This document shows, one piece after another, positions 1,736 to 34,730 of a stretch of DNA of 64,000 bases; the stretch's first letter is position 1, and each line of letters begins with the position of its first letter. The notes below the pieces were generated by a model. It was not told the origin of the DNA. It made no database searches and was given only the letters and a program-made list of their open reading frames with translations. Source of the stretch: Candidatus Niyogibacteria bacterium RIFCSPLOWO2_01_FULL_45_48 (lineage in GTDB: Bacteria; Patescibacteriota; Minisyncoccia; HO2-45-28); NCBI GenBank assembly GCA_001819395.1, contig MHMQ01000032.1:20150-84149 (forward strand), given 5' to 3'. A program made the position numbers and the translations under genes.

Positions 1736-2283
1736 AGAAAAAAGATTGGTGGTTCATTCTTACTGCTGGGCTTGTTATGGGAGTGATAAGGTCCATAATC
1801 TCTTATAAATATCTGGACGCTGACTATTTGGTCTTAAGCTTTGCTGGGGTTTTTATAGTAACGACGCCAATGTTTTTGCTTCTTGTTAAGTTATATCGTC
1901 TGTTTAAAGGTGAAGACCGGAATTTGCAAAATCAGGCGGAAATTTCAGTAGATAAAAAAGTATATTGGTCTCAATTTGGTAGGTTAACGGGATGGTCTTT
2001 TTTAGCTGCCGTTTCGGGTATTGTGTCTACGTTTTTGTTTTTATATTCCGCTTCCTTAGGATTTGGCGGATTGCTATTCCTCGCTTCTTTGATGTGGTTT
2101 TTGGGCATATTGTTTGTGATTTGGATGGCGTCTTCGTTTTTTATTTACCTCTCGTATAAGAATAGCCGCGACATAAACGACATAAAAAGGGGCGTCAGAT
2201 CTTTTAAATATGTTCTGTTGATACTGACGACTGTATTGCTTACAGTGGATTTGTATGTTGCTGTGCGTTGTTGTACGGGGTAG
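1732..2283 (+). CDS. hypothetical integral membrane protein
   Basis: 183 aa, several hydrophobic helices; start overlaps rpe stop (ATGA). Confidence 0.45.
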   Translation: MKKKDWWFILTAGLVMGVIRSIISYKYLDADYLVLSFAGVFIVTTPMFLLLVKLYRLFKGEDRNLQNQAEISVDKKVYWSQFGRLTGWSFLAAVSGIVSTFLFLYSASLGFGGLLFLASLMWFLGILFVIWMASSFFIYLSYKNSRDINDIKRGVRSFKYVLLILTTVLLTVDLYVAVRCCTG

Positions 2284-2307
2284 GTAAAATTAAATTTTTA
2301 GACAAAC

Positions 2308-3195
2308 ATGGCACACTTGCATGATGAGAAGATTAAAGAGTTAGAGAAGAAGGCGAATGAGATTCGCCAGACTTTGATTGAATCGTTAATTGAGGCGGGG
2401 TCGGGGCACTCGGCAGGGCCTTTGGGCATGGCTGATATTTTCACTTTGCTTTATTTTCATGTTTTGGAGCACGACCCGAAAAAACCGGATTGGCCGGAGC
2501 GCGACCGTTTGGTGCTTTCAAACGGCCACATTTGTCCCGTTCAATACGCGACAATGGCCCATGCAGGATATTTTTCAATCAAAGAAACCAAAACGCTTCG
2601 TAAATTAGGCACAAGGCTGCAGGGGCATCCTCATCGCACTTCGCTTCCGGGACTTGAGACGACCTCTGGCCCTTTGGGTTCCGGCCTTTCGCAGGCCGTC
2701 GGAATGGCGATTGCTTTAAGAATGGATGGCAAGAAAAACATCGTGTACTGTCTGATGTCTGACGGCGAGCACGACGCGGGGCAGACATGGGAGGCGGCAA
2801 TGCTTGCCGGCCGTGAAAAATTGTGGAATCTGGTTGCGATAATGGACAGGAACAACATCCAAATTGACGGTAACACAGAAGATATAATGCCGCTTGAACC
2901 TCTTCGCGCCAAATACGAAGCGTTCGGCTGGCATGTAATTGATGTAGGAGGGCATGACTTTCAAGAATTGAACTCGGCGATTGATGAGGCCAAGGCGGTT
3001 TTTGAAAAACCCACAATGATTATCGCGCACACCATTCCGGGCAAGGGCGTAGAATATATGGAGCGAGATTTTCGCTGGCACGGCGTTCCGCCGGGCAAGG
3101 GGCCCGAGGATAAATTCCCGCGCGACAAACAGGGCGCGGAGGCCATTAAAGAATTGCGCACATTATGGGGCAGAATAAAAAGCGAACATGAGTAA
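2308..3195 (+). CDS. transketolase, N-terminal (TPP-binding) subunit of a split enzyme
   Basis: 295 aa; GHSAGPLGMADI, LSNGH, GPLGSGLSQAVGMA, DGEHDAGQTWEA transketolase N-half signatures. Confidence 0.9.
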   Translation: MAHLHDEKIKELEKKANEIRQTLIESLIEAGSGHSAGPLGMADIFTLLYFHVLEHDPKKPDWPERDRLVLSNGHICPVQYATMAHAGYFSIKETKTLRKLGTRLQGHPHRTSLPGLETTSGPLGSGLSQAVGMAIALRMDGKKNIVYCLMSDGEHDAGQTWEAAMLAGREKLWNLVAIMDRNNIQIDGNTEDIMPLEPLRAKYEAFGWHVIDVGGHDFQELNSAIDEAKAVFEKPTMIIAHTIPGKGVEYMERDFRWHGVPPGKGPEDKFPRDKQGAEAIKELRTLWGRIKSEHE

Positions 3196-3197
3196 TT
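3170..3197. repeat. 28-bp direct repeat (copy 1) = 3' end of transketolase N-subunit gene
   Basis: GCAGAATAAAAAGCGAACATGAGTAATT; 27/28 identical copy at 4837-4864; partial copies at 3855-3871 and 3935-3948. Confidence 0.85.
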
Positions 3198-3200
3198 AAA

Positions 3201-3863
3201 ATGAATAATATAAACATGGGAACAAAAACAAAGATTTTTGCATTTAGTGCAATATTGACAATATCCTTAATATATCTGTTCAGTGGCTTATTTCGTTTAG
3301 GCGGGTATCTAAGCTATACATATTTGGGCGTTGACCTGTTTCTGGATAAGTATGGACCCGCTCTGCCCAAGCTAGCTTTCCTGCTTTTATGGATCTTAAT
3401 GGGTGTCGTCTTGTTAGTAATATTAAAGAGATATAAGGTTAAAAACTATGTATTGTCTAAAATCTTTTTGGTTTCTGCGTTTGAATTTTTCATATTTGTG
3501 ATCAATCTTGTGATAAGCAGTGCAGTTGGAGGTGTGCCGGGCATGACAGGAATATTTTCAGCAATGATAATAGTTTGTGCTTTGATGATTTTCTCAAGTC
3601 TGGTAAAAGATTTTGGAAACATGAAAATAGATCAATCAACGCTCGAGGCGCCGGAGATTTTGGCGAGAGATAATAGCGAGAAAAAAATCAGAAACCATAT
3701 CGTCAATCTCGTCATTATAATTTCGACTATGTTCATCGCTTGGGCTATTTTGAACTATTTCGTCTCCAGCGCGTATATACAATATTCTCTTTTTAGATTT
3801 AAAAGTCCTTATTATATTAACCCCTCCAGCTCTTTACGCCACCCAACTATTTGGGAAAAATAA
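3201..3863 (+). CDS. hypothetical integral membrane protein
   Basis: 220 aa, AT-rich, multiple TM helices; sits between the two transketolase subunit genes. Confidence 0.45.
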   Translation: MNNINMGTKTKIFAFSAILTISLIYLFSGLFRLGGYLSYTYLGVDLFLDKYGPALPKLAFLLLWILMGVVLLVILKRYKVKNYVLSKIFLVSAFEFFIFVINLVISSAVGGVPGMTGIFSAMIIVCALMIFSSLVKDFGNMKIDQSTLEAPEILARDNSEKKIRNHIVNLVIIISTMFIAWAILNYFVSSAYIQYSLFRFKSPYYINPSSSLRHPTIWEK

Positions 3864-3941
3864 AAAGCGAACACCAATGATTTTTATAAATTATAAATAT
3901 TGTGAAATCACGCACCGAACTTGTTCTGGTGCGAGGCGAAC

Positions 3942-4820
3942 ATGAGTAAATATTTTATAGCCAGCATTTTGATCGTTATCATTTTTGCTGTTGCCGGCGT
4001 TTACTTTCTGATAAAAGAAACCGACGTACTTGAAAATAAGGCTGGTCAAAACTTGGAACGAAATCCGGCGGAATCCGTTATAAATCCGAAAGATTATATT
4101 TTGGAGAGTTATCCCTTAAGTCAGTCGCCGATTTACGACAGTCTTGAGAAAAATTGTTTTGACCGGCATATAGCGAGCGCCAAAGACATCCGTCTCGTTA
4201 AAGATCAAAACATTTTGGTGCCGAGCTTGTTGCGTCTTGTTTATCAAAGTGAAAATCAAAAGCCCGGGTGCCTGGAATACGTTGTTTCAGTTTTTTCCGT
4301 GCCTACGGGTGGGGAATACCTGTATTTTCAGGCTTCCCTTAATCCTGATGCTAACGTAAAGTACGCAGGTCCTTTTGGAATATACGCACTGGACTTGTCC
4401 GACTTGTCATTAAAAAAATTGTCCGTATCAAAATTTGTTTTCAACTTAGACGAGTACTTGCCTATTTCGGAAGGCACTTATCAGATTTTGGCTGGGGGGA
4501 ATCAGTTGGTGGACTGGGATTCGGGAGGTGTGTATCTTATAAACTTGGAAACAGATACCAGAAGCAGTATTTATAAAACAAAAGATGGTCAATGGCTTGT
4601 TTCAAGAATAATATTTGGCATGGGGCCATATTTTGGCCACGGTGTAAGGGTTGTAAACGACGAAATTATTGTTGGGGTATATGATAAAACCAAAACAGAA
4701 GATGGCTATCCAATCAAAATAGATCAGTACGGTAATATTTTTGCAGAGTCAGCTTCCGGAGCAGTTCTACGCGAATTTAAACCCAAGTTTATAGAAAACA
4801 TAACTTTGTATGTAAAATGA
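3942..4820 (+). CDS. hypothetical protein with N-terminal TM anchor
   Basis: ATG at 3942 preceded by GAGG; one N-terminal TM helix then soluble domain; no recognisable motif. An alternative TTG start lies at 3921. Confidence 0.45.
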   Translation: MSKYFIASILIVIIFAVAGVYFLIKETDVLENKAGQNLERNPAESVINPKDYILESYPLSQSPIYDSLEKNCFDRHIASAKDIRLVKDQNILVPSLLRLVYQSENQKPGCLEYVVSVFSVPTGGEYLYFQASLNPDANVKYAGPFGIYALDLSDLSLKKLSVSKFVFNLDEYLPISEGTYQILAGGNQLVDWDSGGVYLINLETDTRSSIYKTKDGQWLVSRIIFGMGPYFGHGVRVVNDEIIVGVYDKTKTEDGYPIKIDQYGNIFAESASGAVLREFKPKFIENITLYVK

Positions 4821-4836
4821 TTAAAAATATTATAGA

Positions 4837-4864
4837 GCAGAATAAAAAGCGAGCATGAGTAATT
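4837..4864. repeat. 28-bp direct repeat (copy 2), encodes orphan ...SRIKSEHE* tail
   Basis: GCAGAATAAAAAGCGAGCATGAGTAATT just after the stop of the 3942-4820 gene. Confidence 0.85.
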
Positions 4865-4883
4865 CGGCTGTTGCGTTAAATGT

Positions 4884-4893
4884 GGGGGGGGGG
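4884..4893. repeat. homopolymeric G10 tract in the promoter region of the surface-protein gene
   Basis: tgtGGGGGGGGGGttatc, 48 nt upstream of ATG 4941; preceded by TTGCGT (possible -35) so the tract would sit in the -35/-10 spacer. Confidence 0.85.
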
Positions 4894-4940
4894 TTATCAT
4901 TTAAACATTATTAGTTATCAATATTATAAATAATAAATAT

Positions 4941-7061
4941 ATGAAAATGAGGGTATTTGCAGCGGTCGTTACAATTATTATATTTTTAGGCGTTTTCGGC
5001 GCTCCGAAAGCTCACGCGGCATTAACCGAAGCCCAGATCCAGGCGATTTTGGGCCTTCTGCAATCGTTTGGCGCTGACCAGAGCGTTATAAATAACGTCA
5101 ACTCGTCGCTTCGTGGCGGGGTAGCGGTTGCGCCTTCAGGAACCGTACAAATCGCGCTTTTCACCGAGAATCTGGGTTGGGGGTCCACGCATCCCGAAGT
5201 TTCAAAACTGCAGCAGTTTTTAAAGGAGCGTGGATATTTTACCGGAGAAGTGACCGGAAGCTTTTTTGGCGCGACAGCGCAGGCAGTCAAAACATTCCAG
5301 TCTAAATACCAAATTGAGCAGAGCGGCTATTTCGGCCCGCAAACCCGCGCGGTTGCCAATAATATTTTACAAGGCGGGCAGACCCAGCCTTCCATCACCG
5401 TCCTTTCGCCGAATGGGGGAGAGGTGTGGGAAATTGGTTCTACAAACAGAATTGAATGGAAAAATTCGAATCTCCCCAGTGGCTCGGATCCGATAAACAT
5501 ACAATTGGTAAATGAACAAGGGGTTCTTATTACGACAATTGCTCAAGGTGTAGCAACGGGGGGTGTTTCCACAGGAGTGGGCGGGGGGGCGTATATGTGG
5601 ACTATTCCAAGTTCAATGAGCTCGGGCACTTATCGTATTAGAGTTATTTGCACCAAAGAACTTGCAGACTGTTTTTCTGGAAGCCTTCCTGTTAGCGATA
5701 CAAGCGACGCGCCGTTCAGTATTGTGGCACCCACAACGACGACCCTGCCTTCCGCCGGCTCTCTTTCTGTTTCGCTTGATTCCGCGACAAGTTTTGGATT
5801 TAGGAATGTGCTTATCGGATCAACCGGTGTTAGCCTTGCCAGCCTTAGATTCACTGCGGTCGGCGAAGATATCGATGTCAAACAGATAGCGCTTCAACTT
5901 TCGGACACCGCCCTTAACACTCCGGACGACCTTTTAAATCGAGAAATTCAACTCTACGACGGGAACGCTGTTTTGATCGGCCGGGCGGTTTTTACAACCG
6001 GCGATTACGCGATATCGACAAACATAATTAATTTCAGGGTGCCCGGAGGAGGATCCAAAGTCATGTTTATCAAGGGCGATATTGCCGCCAATGCGACTAT
6101 CGGCGACACGCTGAAAGTTGATTACGACGGCAATAATGCCGGTCTTGGAGGAAATTATGGTGTTGGTTGGACATCAGGCAATACCATTATTCCAACAGGT
6201 TCTGACACCGCTTCAGCCGGAGTTAAAATTATAAGTCCAACATCGGCAACCCAGCCCTCAATCACCGTTCTTTCGCCGAATGGCGGAATCGCCCAACTGT
6301 CCGGAGGCGCGTTTGATATTAAGTATAGAACTTCGGGTGTTTCGCGAATTGGTTTGGTTTTGATTAAAAATGGCGTGACGGTTTCTAGTGTTGGTATGTT
6401 CGACCAACTTGCCGACGGCGAGCACAGCGTGGCTTTCCTTGTGGGCCCACACAACGAACAAACTATCGGAACAGGAAGCGGATACAAAGTTAAGATTTAT
6501 AATTGGGATAACGCGAGTACTGTTGATGAGAGCGATGCTTTGTTTAGTATCGTGAAGCCGTCCCTGACCGCAAGCCTTGATGCGGGTTCTCCTGCTGGTT
6601 CTATTCTGGCGGGGACCTCCCGCGTTTCTTTAATGAGGGTTAAATTGTCGGCGGGGGATAGTGACGTGAAAATCAACGGCGTAACTATTCAAGACAACGG
6701 CGCAGGCGGCAGAATATCAAATTTAGAACTAACGACACCGACGCAACAAGATGCCGAAACTCACTTGGCCAATGGCGTTGCCATGGGCGGCGGCAGATAT
6801 CAGTTTTCGGCTCCCATCACGATTCCGGCAAACGGCAGTAAATTGCTGGACATTAGAGTCAATGTTTCGCCAACAGCATCGGGAGGCGTGTGGCTGACGT
6901 TTGAAAGTGTTCTTCATGGTTATGGCAACAGTTTGGTTGTCAGCGGTTTGGGATTTCAGGGCTCAATTCTCAACATAACCGGAACGTCGTCAATTGTTCC
7001 CAATGCCAGAAACTTTGCGAATATTTTTCAGTGGTGGCCTTTGACGATGGCTCCTCGCTAG
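4941..7061 (+). CDS. secreted Ser/Thr/Gly-rich surface protein with peptidoglycan-binding (PG_binding_1-like) domain and internal repeats
   Basis: Signal peptide MKMRVFAAVVTIIIFLGVFGAPKAHA; PG-binding-like stretch HPEVSKLQQFLKERGYFTGEVTGSFFGATAQAVKTFQ; repeated QPSITVLSPNGGE modules at approx nt 5390 and 6250. Confidence 0.65.
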   Translation: MKMRVFAAVVTIIIFLGVFGAPKAHAALTEAQIQAILGLLQSFGADQSVINNVNSSLRGGVAVAPSGTVQIALFTENLGWGSTHPEVSKLQQFLKERGYFTGEVTGSFFGATAQAVKTFQSKYQIEQSGYFGPQTRAVANNILQGGQTQPSITVLSPNGGEVWEIGSTNRIEWKNSNLPSGSDPINIQLVNEQGVLITTIAQGVATGGVSTGVGGGAYMWTIPSSMSSGTYRIRVICTKELADCFSGSLPVSDTSDAPFSIVAPTTTTLPSAGSLSVSLDSATSFGFRNVLIGSTGVSLASLRFTAVGEDIDVKQIALQLSDTALNTPDDLLNREIQLYDGNAVLIGRAVFTTGDYAISTNIINFRVPGGGSKVMFIKGDIAANATIGDTLKVDYDGNNAGLGGNYGVGWTSGNTIIPTGSDTASAGVKIISPTSATQPSITVLSPNGGIAQLSGGAFDIKYRTSGVSRIGLVLIKNGVTVSSVGMFDQLADGEHSVAFLVGPHNEQTIGTGSGYKVKIYNWDNASTVDESDALFSIVKPSLTASLDAGSPAGSILAGTSRVSLMRVKLSAGDSDVKINGVTIQDNGAGGRISNLELTTPTQQDAETHLANGVAMGGGRYQFSAPITIPANGSKLLDIRVNVSPTASGGVWLTFESVLHGYGNSLVVSGLGFQGSILNITGTSSIVPNARNFANIFQWWPLTMAPR

Positions 7062-7077: not shown

Positions 7078-8103
7078 GTGTCGGTTAACCCCAAATCAAA
7101 ATTAGTTAAAGAAGTTTTGGACTTAAAAAAAGTCGGGCAGGCGCCGACGAGGAACGGGTATGGGGAAGGATTGGTGGAGGCGGGCAGGAAAGACAAAAAT
7201 GTGGTGGTGCTTTGCGCTGACCTGACCGAATCCACGCGTTCGGAAGCGTTTGCCAAAGAATTTCCGGAGAGATTCGTTCAAATGGGTGTGGCCGAGCAAA
7301 ATATGGCTTCGGTTGCGTCCGGCATGGCCGCGGTCGGCAAAATTCCTTTCATTTCTTCTTACGCCATGTTTAGCCCGGGGAGGAACTGGGAGCAGATAAG
7401 AACGACGATTTGCTATAACGAACGGCATGTGATTATCGGAGGCGCGCATGCGGGGGTTTCGGTGGGTCCTGACGGCGCGACGCATCAGGCAATTGAAGAT
7501 ATTGCCATAACCCGCGTTTTGCCGAATATGACCGTGATTGTGCCTTGCGATGCGGTTGAGGCCAAAAAAGCGACTGTGGCCTCGGTGGGGCTGAAAGGCG
7601 CTGTGTATCTTCGCTTTGCCCGCGAAAAAACGCCGGTATTCACAACCGACAAAACTCCGTTTAAGGTTGGACGTGCTGAAATACTTTGGGATTCAAGCGG
7701 TAGTCCCTCGCTTCGCTCGGGACGATCACGGCTTGACGTAGCCGTGATCGCTTGTGGGCCGTTGGTTCATAACGCGCTTTTGGCCGCGGCAGATTTAGAA
7801 AAGAAAGGGATCAAGGTCCGCGTTATCAATAACCACACCATAAAGCCGATGGACGAGAAAACTATTTTGAAAGCCGCAAAAGATGCGGGCGCATTAGTAA
7901 CGGTTGAGGAGCATCAGATAAACGGGGGAATGGGCTCGGCCGTGGCCGAAATAATCACACGAAATTATCCCGTGCCGATTGAATTTGTCGGAGTCAAAAA
8001 CCGCTTCGGCGAGTCAGGAGAGCCAACCGAACTTATTGAACATTTCGGTATGTCGTCAAAGCACATAATTGAAGCGGCGCGTAGGGCGATAAAGAGAAAG
8101 TAA
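7078..8103 (+). CDS. transketolase, C-terminal (pyrimidine-binding/C-domain) subunit
   Basis: GTG start; GYGEGLVEAG, FVQMGVAEQNM, GATHQAIEDIA motifs of transketolase C-half. Confidence 0.9.
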   Translation: MSVNPKSKLVKEVLDLKKVGQAPTRNGYGEGLVEAGRKDKNVVVLCADLTESTRSEAFAKEFPERFVQMGVAEQNMASVASGMAAVGKIPFISSYAMFSPGRNWEQIRTTICYNERHVIIGGAHAGVSVGPDGATHQAIEDIAITRVLPNMTVIVPCDAVEAKKATVASVGLKGAVYLRFAREKTPVFTTDKTPFKVGRAEILWDSSGSPSLRSGRSRLDVAVIACGPLVHNALLAAADLEKKGIKVRVINNHTIKPMDEKTILKAAKDAGALVTVEEHQINGGMGSAVAEIITRNYPVPIEFVGVKNRFGESGEPTELIEHFGMSSKHIIEAARRAIKRK

Positions 8104-8201
8104 GAAATCAACTATAAATGTAAACCCTACGTCGCAAGCTCCTCAGGGTCCTCAAAAAATATAGTCGCTACAGCTCCTTATTTTTTGGGAAATAAAAAAA
8201 A

Positions 8202-8229
8202 CCGCCGCGGGAAGCGTTTCCCCGCGGCG
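8202..8229 (-). terminator. rho-independent terminator for the minus-strand gene ending at 8272
   Basis: CGCCGCGGG / CCCGCGGCG 9-bp GC stem preceded on + strand by an A-run (T-run on minus strand). Confidence 0.55.
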
Positions 8230-8271
8230 AGCGTTCTAAACGTCCCACTCAGACGTCTTTCGTGGCCAGTT

Positions 8272-8529
8272 TCATAATGTGAGTAGCAGAACAGCCGACG
8301 TCAGAATTGCGCCGATGGCCATCCCCCAGAACTGCCCCCATTCTTTCTGTTTCCAGCCAAGTTGGGCAAAAGTCAGCTGGATGTAAATTCCAAGGATAAG
8401 CATCGGGACTGACAATCCCGACACGTTCCTCGTTCTGATGACCGTTTCCAGTTGCAGAGCCCAAGCCAGCACGTTTACCACGCCGGCTGTCCACACTCTT
8501 GTTTCCAAGCTGAATATTTTTCTGAGCAC
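8272..8529 (-). CDS. SemiSWEET / PQ-loop (MtN3-like) small sugar transporter
   Basis: 85 aa, three TM helices, ALQLETVIRTRNVSGLS PQ-loop-like motif; size typical of bacterial SemiSWEETs. Confidence 0.5.
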   Translation of the reverse strand: MLRKIFSLETRVWTAGVVNVLAWALQLETVIRTRNVSGLSVPMLILGIYIQLTFAQLGWKQKEWGQFWGMAIGAILTSAVLLLTL

Positions 8530-33672: not shown

Positions 33673-33837
33673 ATGCCGCAACCGAATCTATTTAAATTCA
33701 AATGTTCCGTTTGCAAACGCGGAAACTATTACAGCACCAAAAACAAGAAAAAAGTTGAGCGAAAAATAGAGCTCAAAAAGTTTTGTAAGTGGTGCAAAAA
33801 ACATACCTTGCATAAAGAGGCAAAAATCACTGCTTGA
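33673..33837 (+). CDS. rpmG: ribosomal protein L33
   Basis: 54 aa (below ORF-track cutoff): MPQPNLFKFKCSVCKRGNYYSTKNKK...KFCKWCKKHTLHKEAK, the CxxC...CxxC zinc ribbon of L33; TGA stop. Confidence 0.8.
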   Translation: MPQPNLFKFKCSVCKRGNYYSTKNKKKVERKIELKKFCKWCKKHTLHKEAKITA

Positions 33838-33878
33838 TTTTTGATATTATTATATAGTATTTTTTGCGCCATTTGCGC

Positions 33879-34014
33879 GAAAGGGGGTCGGGGAAAAGCG
33901 GAAGGGTTTCCCCGCGGAGGAAAACAGACCCGACGCGCGAAGCGGTCGGGGCGCTAGAAACCGAGGGTTTCTAGGGAGCACGAGCGAATCCCTTGAGGTG
34001 AGCGAGCTGCGACG
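33879..34014. repeat. 136-bp GC-rich structured element, copy 1
   Basis: GAAAGGGGGTCGGGG...CTAGAAACCGAGGGTTTCTAG...GCGAGCTGCGACG; identical to copies 2 and 3 except one substitution (A for C in ACAGACCCGAC). Confidence 0.9.
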
Positions 34015-34074
34015 AAAATGGTGCAGAAAGCACACGGTTCATAAAGAAGTCAAAATAACGGCTTAGATTTTTTT

Positions 34075-34145
34075 GGGGGTATGGTTCAATGGTAGAACAT
34101 TGGTCTCCAAAACCAAAGATCAGGGTTCGATTCCTTGTACCCCCG
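34075..34145 (+). tRNA. tRNA-Trp (anticodon CCA), copy 1
   Basis: Acceptor GGGGGTA/TACCCCC, D-stem GTTC/GAAC, anticodon stem TTGGT/ACCAA with loop CTCCAAA, T-arm CAGGG-TTCGATT-CCTTG (one G-U). Confidence 0.85.
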
Positions 34146-34193
34146 CATTGAAAATTTTGGCATCTTTTGATGCCTAGAATTTCAAATTTGATA

Positions 34194-34212
34194 GGTACAA
34201 GGAATCGAACCC
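34194..34212. repeat. inverted 19-nt copy of the tRNA-Trp T-arm/acceptor 3' end
   Basis: GGTACAAGGAATCGAACCC is the exact reverse complement of GGGTTCGATTCCTTGTACC in the upstream tRNA; second copy at 34530-34548. Confidence 0.85.
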
Positions 34213-34214
34213 AC

Positions 34215-34350
34215 GAAAGGGGGTCGGGGAAAAGCGGAAGGGTTTCCCCGCGGAGGAAAACAGCCCCGACGCGCGAAGCGGTCGGGGCGCTAGAAACCGA
34301 GGGTTTCTAGGGAGCACGAGCGAATCCCTTGAGGTGAGCGAGCTGCGACG
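34215..34350. repeat. 136-bp GC-rich element, copy 2
   Basis: Exact 336-bp period with copy 1. Confidence 0.9.
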
Positions 34351-34410
34351 AAAATGGTGCAGAAAGCACACGGTTCATAAAGAAGTCAAAATAACGGCTT
34401 AGATTTTTTT

Positions 34411-34481
34411 GGGGGTATGGTTCAATGGTAGAACATTGGTCTCCAAAACCAAAGATCAGGGTTCGATTCCTTGTACCCCCG
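34411..34481 (+). tRNA. tRNA-Trp (anticodon CCA), copy 2, identical to copy 1
   Basis: Same sequence 336 bp downstream. Confidence 0.85.
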
Positions 34482-34529
34482 CATTGAAAATTTTGGCATC
34501 TTTTGATGCCTAGAATTTCAAATTTGATA

Positions 34530-34548
34530 GGTACAAGGAATCGAACCC
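34530..34548. repeat. second inverted tRNA-Trp 3' fragment
   Basis: GGTACAAGGAATCGAACCC. Confidence 0.85.
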
Positions 34549-34550
34549 AC

Positions 34551-34686
34551 GAAAGGGGGTCGGGGAAAAGCGGAAGGGTTTCCCCGCGGAGGAAAACAGC
34601 CCCGACGCGCGAAGCGGTCGGGGCGCTAGAAACCGAGGGTTTCTAGGGAGCACGAGCGAATCCCTTGAGGTGAGCGAGCTGCGACG
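34551..34686. repeat. 136-bp GC-rich element, copy 3
   Basis: Identical to copy 2. Confidence 0.9.
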
Positions 34687-34730
34687 GGTTCGATTCCCTC
34701 AGCTCCCGCAAATTTAGACGGGCGATTTCT
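34687..34730 (+). pseudogene. decayed 3' remnant of a third tRNA-Trp copy
   Basis: GGTTCGATTCCCTCAGCTCCCGCA aligns to the tRNA-Trp T-loop/acceptor (GGGTTCGATTCCTTGTACCCCCGCA) with substitutions that break the stems; a further TATACCCCCGC fragment follows. Confidence 0.5.

Follow-up and report, generated by a model that had tools for sequence, protein, structure and literature searches.

How do new genes enter the operons of bacteria whose genomes are already tiny and gene-dense? The genomes of Patescibacteria are full of lineage-specific membrane proteins, and the routes by which these enter are poorly understood. The question is raised by the transketolase locus in a 64-kb stretch of contig MHMQ01000032.1 from the groundwater Patescibacteria genome of Candidatus Niyogibacteria bacterium RIFCSPLOWO2_01_FULL_45_48, which is the whole stretch of DNA analysed here and is called the window below. 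A preliminary description, made from the sequence of the window, had noted that the genes for the N- and C-terminal transketolase subunits (tktN and tktC) were separated by three genes, that the end of tktN recurred among them, and that one or two insertions might have duplicated their target. Pfam domains and open reading frames (ORFs) confirmed the arrangement: the N and C domains are on separate ORFs, as in a split transketolase, and the two genes are not adjacent, with 3883 nt and three genes, here named A, B and C, between them. Target duplication is now supported by empty sites in relatives and by an independent event with a 58-nt duplication in the related loci L111 and L112. We propose that the duplications are probably by-products of recombinational duplicative insertion in situ, and not of a mobile-element enzyme. 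Relatives and further contigs of this organism are given L-numbers throughout, and percentages of amino-acid identity attached to relatives compare their tktN with window tktN.

Copies of the tktN-tktC junction in the window

Window tktN ends in ...LWGRIKSEHE*, a tail that is kept at the protein level as ...G[KR]IKSEH[EQ]* across 80 related Patescibacteria loci from species-representative genomes. The 28-mer at this end (GCAGAATAAAAAGCGAACATGAGTAATT, 3170-3197) was indeed found again at 4837-4864 with one mismatch (27/28), and ungapped extension lengthened the repeat to 36 nt (3162-3197 and 4829-4864), of which 33/36 are identical. No further match to the 28-mer with up to three mismatches was found in the 64 kb; 100 shuffles likewise gave none (chance expectation 0.00). 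The first of these copies, R1, is the working junction. It also holds an overlapping ATG (3188) that is the tktC start in relatives and that opens only a mini-ORF here, MSN* (3188-3199), 2 nt before the start of gene A. The repeat unit is at least 36 nt long and includes this old tktC start codon; the duplicated stretch comprises some 33-50 nt from the tktN tail together with the overlap of stop and start.

The shorter pieces of the same sequence that had been reported at 3855-3871 and 3935-3948 are real, and their coordinates were refined to 3859-3873 (AATAAAAAGCGAACA, exact) and 3936-3949 (GCGAACATGAGTAA, exact). They belong to an older, decayed middle copy, R2. Gene A ends inside its left part (R2a), from which it takes its final codons and its stop, and the right part (R2b) contains the ATG at 3942 that starts gene B, the latter in agreement with the preliminary description. 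GCGAACA stands on both flanks of the spacer that splits R2 (3867-3873 and 3936-3942). Within this spacer, an AT-rich stretch (3877-3900) resembles 4917-4940 upstream of gene C at 20/24 positions, and a hairpin (CGCACC-N11-GGTGCG, 3911-3933) follows, the sequence of which occurs once in the window and is present in 9/9 contigs of this organism that reach it. A consensus scan of the + strand of the spacer gave no promoter site. R2a shows the GGGAAAAAT state, as do L095 and the tails of many other species; the GGGGCAGAAT (CAG) state is common to R1, R3, L111, L113 and L120.

The third copy, R3, follows the second inserted gene and reads *LKIL*SRIKSEHE* in the tktN tail frame, which bears out the orphan SRIKSEHE* tail described earlier; a stop was gained there (TGG>TAG). 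One nonsense, one missense and one synonymous change separate R3 from R1, differences that would fit an in-situ, neutral-looking decay of R3. The remnant small ORF that begins in R3 contains a G10 tract (4884-4893), which is G8 in one independent assembly (L006) and may be slippage-prone or reflect a sequencing effect. The repeat motif was found nowhere in the 64-kb window outside R1, R2 and R3, showed no significant secondary structure (R1 region z -1.0, R3 region z +1.1) and had no Rfam match. A terminator or regulatory motif was therefore rejected for a sequence that has three sites in the window and encodes a conserved protein tail. Two apparent further tail copies were also discarded, one in the window at 8169-8200, a low-complexity A/T run beside a terminator hairpin, and one at +1199 in L014 (18/20; 16/20 in L012), a coincidence inside a sugar kinase gene (...SLGSKIKID...).

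The exact tktN protein is also encoded on NCBI contig MHMR01000008.1, among others, and this tktN is present in contigs of 10 independently assembled samples. Six of the 10 contigs span the whole region from tktN to tktC; five are identical, and the sixth has a poly-G length change and one single-nucleotide polymorphism. Three further contigs are identical over their reach. The tenth, L010, agrees through R1 and for 69 nt into gene A before it diverges, which probably reflects an assembly chimera and not a variant allele; Lon-protease-like sequence stands at its contig end (L010 2999-3094), after window position 3269. The layout is not an assembly artefact, because every independent contig that reaches the region agrees.

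Empty and independently filled junctions in relatives

Close relatives (tktN 90-96% amino-acid identity) have an empty site, and in most of them the two genes overlap via ATGAGTAA or ATGA, so that the expected adjacency of the subunit genes is indeed seen outside the window. In L095 (95%), tktN and tktC overlap by 8 nt in cATGAGTAA, where ATG is the tktC start and TAA the tktN stop; its empty site reads ...GCGAACATGAGTAATCCCAAAGC, and the ATG begins tktC MSNPKAKLVK. An ATGA overlap is present in L113 (96%), L120 (94%) and L114 (93%, complete genome CP066691.1), and a 16-nt gap separates the genes in L117 (90%). The sample that gave L113, with its empty site, also gave a window-type contig. Since the genes of the relatives overlap, R is the ancestral junction of tktN stop and tktC start. 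To judge from these sequences, the comparison shows an ancestral state in which tktN and tktC overlapped, with the tktC start within the last tktN codons (cATGAGTAA or ATGA). It likewise shows that about 3.9 kb entered exactly at this junction; no fewer than three steps were involved, and at least two of them duplicated it.

Window tktC begins with GTG (MSVNPKSK...), 17 nt past the stop of gene C, and this GTG is the last triplet of the inserted DNA. The tktC N-termini of relatives read MSNPKAK, MINPKAK or MISPKAK. The ancestral ATG of window tktC was left behind in the R copies, and the gene C event forced the GTG start.

In L111 and L112 (tktN 98% identical in amino acids and 89% in nucleotides), a different gene for a 666-aa secreted protein lies at the same point. 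The L111 protein has PG_binding_1 and Kre9_KNH domains and shares 29-38% identity with the window gene C product, over those domains only. The L111 insert is flanked by a direct repeat of 60/61 identical positions with a 58-nt perfect core, TGCGCACATTATGGGGCAGAATAAAAAGCGAGCATCAATGATAAGTCCAAAGGCAAAA. Besides 41 nt of the tktN tail, this repeat takes in the ATGA overlap and the initial ~17 nt of tktC. Through the left copy, tktN retains its end and the newcomer is fused in frame to the tktC start and first 7 codons (MISPKAK...); the right copy rebuilds the tktC start. This repeat has no attC-like fold (z +0.5). In L014 and L012 (76-77%), a 36-50-nt hairpin spacer (z -3.9) is followed by a 14-nt tail copy beside the tktC ATG, with 13/14 identities in L014 and a greater divergence in L012, and L034 carries a 20/25 copy of the first ~10 codons of tktC at its left junction. 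The duplication lengths vary between events (14, 36 and 58-61 nt), and the repeat matches the junction of its own genome, ...CATGAGTAA in the window and ...CATCAATGATAAGTCC in L111. The repeats are therefore target-derived. We scanned 79 species and 14 metagenome loci for duplications of the tail or junction; these were significant only in the window, L111, L014 (with L012) and L034, and weaker in L039, where the match is AT-rich. The older insertions in the scanned loci mostly had no detectable duplication, as would be expected if unneeded copies decay.

Occupancy of the junction across Patescibacteria

We surveyed the tktN-tktC spacing in 79 Patescibacteria species-level loci that have both genes. 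The genes overlap in 21 species, the gap is at most 30 nt in 37, and it measures 130-2500 nt in 33 (42%). In all 33 loci the intervening ORFs are co-oriented with tkt, and in 23/33 no more than 20 nt lie between the tktN stop and the start of the first ORF, which is often the ATG within the tail itself. The contents are unrelated to each other: PCC, a Gp49/HTH toxin-antitoxin pair, GIY-YIG (in one species only, L062), 23S_rRNA_IVP, pilin-like, DUF5671 and DUF1653 genes as well as genes for small transmembrane (TM) proteins and Cys-rich TM proteins. The occupied junction in 33/79 species makes it a hotspot, where small genes, for the most part envelope or selfish ones, land throughout the Patescibacteria.

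Two kinds of gene recur at the junction. A ~140-aa PCC-domain gene was found in L042, L060, L066, L074 and L080, with a 162-aa relative in L048, and a Cys-rich TM protein family in L023, L024, L034, L044 and L046.

The inserted genes

The coordinates of the locus are collected in Table 1. The three inserted genes are unrelated to one another and encode envelope proteins. Genes A and B have a GC content of 36-40%, compared with 51% for the tkt genes. Neither A nor B has a Pfam, PHROG or PADLOC match. A search of 5.8 billion proteins with gene A gave only itself, and 1.84 billion representatives yielded a single marginal match (E 6.5e-4), at the N-terminus. Gene B has 12 homologues with 29-47% identity, all on Patescibacteria-type contigs and in unrelated gene contexts, none of them at tkt junctions. 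Its AlphaFold model (pLDDT 75) gave weak beta-propeller-like matches, and these were too weak (TM-score 0.2-0.33) for a function to be assigned from structure. Gene C has an AT-rich promoter-like region upstream, where the consensus scan placed a promoter-like site at 4900-4927, and no junction copy downstream; it is a separate insertion without a long repeat.

Table 1 Features of the tktN-tktC region (window coordinates)
Feature	Position	Strand	Description
tktN, transketolase N-terminal (thiamine diphosphate (ThDP)-binding) subunit	2308-3195	+	Pfam Transketolase_N, E 2.4e-63
R1, working junction copy	3162-3197	+	last 34 nt of tktN including stop TAA (3193-3195)
Gene A	3201-3863	+	220 aa, ~5 predicted TM segments, 35.6% GC
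R2a, left part of decayed middle copy (CTATTTGGGAAAAATAAAAAGCGAACA)	3847-3873	+	gives ...IWEK* of gene A
R2 spacer, 62 nt splitting R2	3874-3935	+	AT-rich stretch and hairpin
R2b, right part of middle copy (GCGAACATGAGTAAATA)	3936-3952	+	old tktC ATG is gene B start (MSK...)
Gene B	3942-4820	+	292 aa, N-terminal TM anchor, all-beta ectodomain, 39.5% GC
R3, orphan junction copy	4829-4864	+	33/36 identical to R1
Remnant small ORF MSNSAVALNVGGGLSFKHY*	4855-4914	+	19 codons, starts at ancestral tktC ATG (4855; MSN)
Gene C	4941-7061	+	706-aa secreted protein (signal/TM, PG_binding_1, Kre9_KNH Ig-like), 49% GC
tktC, transketolase C-terminal subunit	7078-8103	+	Transket_pyr and Transketolase_C, E 5.2e-39 and 6.7e-30

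Genes for mobility were sought among A, B and C and the called genes from -8.6 kb to +10 kb around the locus. A, B and C encode no transposase, integrase or nuclease domain (Pfam, PHROG), and transposase, integrase and endonuclease domains are likewise missing from the neighbouring genes. The inserts are not bounded by terminal inverted repeats; the best inverted matches are 7-12 nt, AT-rich and not terminal. An intragenomic source was discarded because paralogues of A, B or C occur nowhere else in the 64 kb. We also rejected a phage or virus origin, as A and B have no PHROG match and C matches via its peptidoglycan-binding domain only, and no viral contigs matched that carry gene B relatives or the repeat. 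Defence-system cargo was set aside for want of a PADLOC match. The preliminary description had proposed a search for the cargo genes elsewhere, flanked by the same repeat. No close copies so flanked were found; the relatives of B lie in unrelated contexts, and A is essentially without relatives.

A proposed route for insertion and the alternatives

We consider it probable that the duplications arose as by-products of recombinational duplicative insertion in situ. Gene B would have entered just past the old tktC start, so that it begins MSK from ATGAGTAAA, and its insertion would have duplicated the junction on its right side as R3. Gene A would then have entered the left copy with a further duplication, giving R1 and R2, and the 62-nt AT-rich/hairpin segment would have split R2. 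Gene C would have entered between ATGAGTAAT(TCGG) and the tktC body, with at most 3-4 nt duplicated. Three routes could lead to such products. A DNA circle with short homology to the junction could integrate by a single (Campbell-type) crossover, replication could switch template and return to the chromosome upstream of its exit point, or there could be homology-anchored import from a relative. Selection would keep the products that preserve the ...KSEHE* end of tktN and a start for the downstream gene. The copies are then reused, R1 as the end of tktN and R2 as the stop of A and the start of B, with R3 an orphan; they would survive because they are useful, the left copy preserving the KSEHE* end and the right copy donating a start coupled to tktN. 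Homology-facilitated illegitimate recombination and microhomology or template-switch insertion place foreign DNA beside a conserved anchor without mobile-element enzymes. Their junctions are variable and may delete or duplicate target sequence, and the processes are known from transformation experiments and rearrangement breakpoints. To our knowledge, they have not been described as recurrent gene loading into an overlapping-gene junction.

Several points weigh against this explanation. Among the assembled contigs there is no circular, polymorphic or single-cassette (B only, C only) intermediate, and all region-spanning contigs of this organism show one layout. R2 carries the state of L095 and others and not the CAG of R1 and R3, which would fit donor-tail import better than simple in-situ duplication and hints that at least one cassette may have brought a donor's tail along. 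The duplications of R2, R3 and L111 all have their left boundary ~36-53 nt before the stop; with n=3 and biased detection, this could hint at a defined site or element. Moreover, if C preceded A and B, R3 would never have served tktC, and usefulness would then apply to R1 and R2 only; the data would fit an arrival of C either before or after A and B.

The R2 state bears directly on an import from a donor, which we regard as unlikely. In such an import, the cargo would already have stood beside tktN in another Niyogibacteria strain, and a fragment with the donor tktN 3' end and the cargo would have recombined inside tktN and joined illegitimately upstream of the recipient's tail, so that the left repeat would stem from the donor and the right one from the recipient. 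In place of CAG, R2 shows the consensus GGGAAAAATAAAAAGCGAACATGAGTAA tail found in L095 and other species, a large gene pool already sits at this junction in other species, and a duplicated rpmG tail elsewhere in the window differs from its working tail by 7 synonymous and 3 conservative changes, the pattern expected of orthologous tails and not of decay. Such an import would resemble homology-facilitated illegitimate recombination, and the C-terminal duplications beside homing-endonuclease ORFs in fungal mitochondrial DNA offer a literature analogue (PMC6279837). However, lineage-specific bases are common to R1 and R3, whose differences resemble random decay, and none of the detectable relatives of B lies at a tkt junction. 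In L111, 60/61 positions agree between the copies, yet the tktN genes of known relatives differ by at least 10% in DNA; that event was therefore intragenomic or within one population. Distinctly less probable is a variant of in-situ insertion in which the junction copies act as a recombinase-free landing pad: a gene flanked by them would loop out as a circle and re-enter a tktN tail by a single crossover, in the same or a related cell, and the excised site would be tktN-R joined to ...CGGCTGTTGCG. If this were true, the split-transketolase junction would be a miniature integron-like cassette site that feeds ORFan envelope genes into a constitutively expressed essential operon, each given the tktC start, and the same process would account for the gene ends that are duplicated in the clade at rpe|tktN and rpmG.

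Enzymatic insertion fares worse. It is very unlikely that the junction is an attB-like site used by a tyrosine or serine recombinase acting in trans, with R1-R3 as attL/attR-type cores of cassettes that resemble integrons or the elements that use XerCD (IMEX, integrative mobile elements exploiting Xer). Direct repeats of 36-58 nt do flank the cargo in tandem (R1-A-R2-B-R3), as in tandem integration, independent events have similar left boundaries, and one site is reused across species. Against this, a recombinase gene is absent from the cargo and from the neighbourhood between -8.6 kb and +10 kb, the repeats equal the coding sequence of each genome including its lineage-specific synonymous differences, with no conserved element-borne site, and their length differs per event. 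Nor does R have palindromic or attC-like structure (z -1.0 and +0.5), and the cargo is different each time, with neither common end sequences nor inverted repeats. Still less credible is a transposon, insertion sequence (IS) element or miniature inverted-repeat transposable element (MITE) with the repeat as its target-site duplication, and for A, B and C this is largely refuted. It would explain direct repeats around inserted DNA, and the GCGAACA repeat that flanks the R2 spacer has, at 7 nt, the length of a target-site duplication. But the inserts have no transposase and no terminal inverted repeats, and the spacer with its hairpin occurs once in the window and only in contigs of this organism. 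Transposase target-site duplications are typically 2-14 bp; duplications of 36 and 58-61 nt are too long and too variable, and the 14 nt of L014 reach the upper limit. The target-derived repeats with their variable length, the lack of mobility genes and inverted repeats, the varied cargo and its co-orientation together argue against transposition and against element-borne attachment sites, and they fit recombinational duplicative insertion. The probability that the locus bears no insertion signature at all is close to nil; the repeat would then be a motif for regulation or termination, a match due to chance or an artefact of assembly. The repeat is A-rich and stands at gene ends, as such a motif might, but this reading is refuted: against a chance expectation of 0.00, the repeat has three sites in 64 kb; it encodes a tail that is conserved in protein sequence and has neither a fold nor an Rfam match; and one layout is seen in all covering independent assemblies, with empty sites in relatives.

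Comparison with known systems

The host-gene 3' end is duplicated on both sides of the inserts, as R1, R2 and R3 in the window and as the flanking repeat in L111. A similar layout has been reported for cob and atp6 in Endoconidiophora resinifera mitochondrial DNA, which have C-terminal duplications beside free-standing homing-endonuclease ORFs (PMC6279837). In both cases an ORF stands at the 3' end of a conserved gene, with the working tail upstream and an orphan partial tail downstream. Unlike the homing-endonuclease case, A, B and C have no LAGLIDADG, GIY-YIG, HNH or similar nuclease domain, the window duplication includes the next gene's start, and the insertion site is the junction of an operon in a bacterial host. 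The modular shuffling of promoter-early stem-loop (PeSL) elements and the mini-circles of T4-type phages (PMC2839356, PMC4122927) provide a second parallel. There too, short direct repeats with expression signals flank non-essential ORFan genes in hyperplastic regions that separate conserved genes. Gene gain and loss, and possibly circular intermediates, are explained there by recombination between the repeats, with no need for a dedicated recombinase. In contrast to PeSL, the window repeats are a coding gene end and a start codon, not promoter-terminator modules, an AT-rich stretch and hairpin are found only in the R2 spacer, and the location is a host chromosome, not a phage.

Integrative elements at the 3' ends of tRNA and protein genes likewise duplicate the end of their target and leave the gene intact, and three-copy tandem arrays are possible; here, R1 and R3 flank A-B as direct repeats and tktN is intact. 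In contrast to such elements, the locus has no integrase, its cargo consists of single genes of 0.7-2 kb, and the window repeats are target-derived and differ in sequence and length between lineages. As for integrons, the neighbouring genes within the scanned range encode no integrase domain that could mark intI/attI, and the R1, R3 and L111 repeats (z -1.0, +1.1 and +0.5) form no attC hairpins. The locus fails the defining tests of transposons, integrase islands, integrons and homing-endonuclease genes, and it reveals no new enzyme or mobile-element class. In the literature, we found no specific described equivalent in Patescibacteria.

What the locus offers is a stepwise record: an empty overlap in relatives, a fresh 58-nt duplication in a sister lineage, and older, reused and decaying copies in the window. 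Newcomers can be wired into an essential operon by duplication of a stop/start overlap, which leaves the upstream enzyme intact and donates a coupled start. In annotation, orphan tail fragments and relocated start codons become recognisable, and the hotspot is likewise of use for studies of strain-level variation in groundwater communities.

Other duplicated gene ends and neighbouring features

A second duplicated gene tail lies at 33673-34710 of the window. The 3' end of rpmG (L33; 33786-33842, ...KWCKKHTLHKEAKITA*) recurs at 43/57 positions at about 34015-34071 and again 336 nt further, where the copy codes for KWCRKHTVHKEVKITA*; the changes relative to the working tail are those given above. 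Each tail copy is preceded by a GC-rich element of ~137 nt with no Rfam match, and the 336-nt unit of element, tail copy and tRNA-Trp(CCA) is repeated in tandem 2.4 times with 99-100% identity.

The rpe|tktN junction (window 2272-2310; about 262 in L095 and about 249 in L120) has had a similar history. The rpe stop overlaps the tktN start in L095, L117 and L120. In L111 (620-715) and L113 (about 1605-1700), an orphan old tktN start (MSHLHED/N) is followed by a hairpin (z -2.6), AT-rich DNA and the current start (MAHLHDE). In the window, only the right arm of this hairpin is left, because a TM-protein gene (1732-2283) ends inside it; a homologue of that gene, encoding 203 aa, is present in L113 and none in L111. 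No junction duplication at rpiB|rpe and no copies of the rpe tail around the TM-protein gene were found in the window.

Downstream of tktC, a strong GC-rich hairpin with T-runs on both sides (8202-8230), resembling a bidirectional terminator, separates the gene from a convergent small gene (8272-8529). Upstream, a 43-aa single-TM ORF followed by a hairpin (884-1015) lies between rpiB and rpe in the window. In L117 and L119, 3-14 nt separate these two genes, and L114 has a different, 189-aa gene there.

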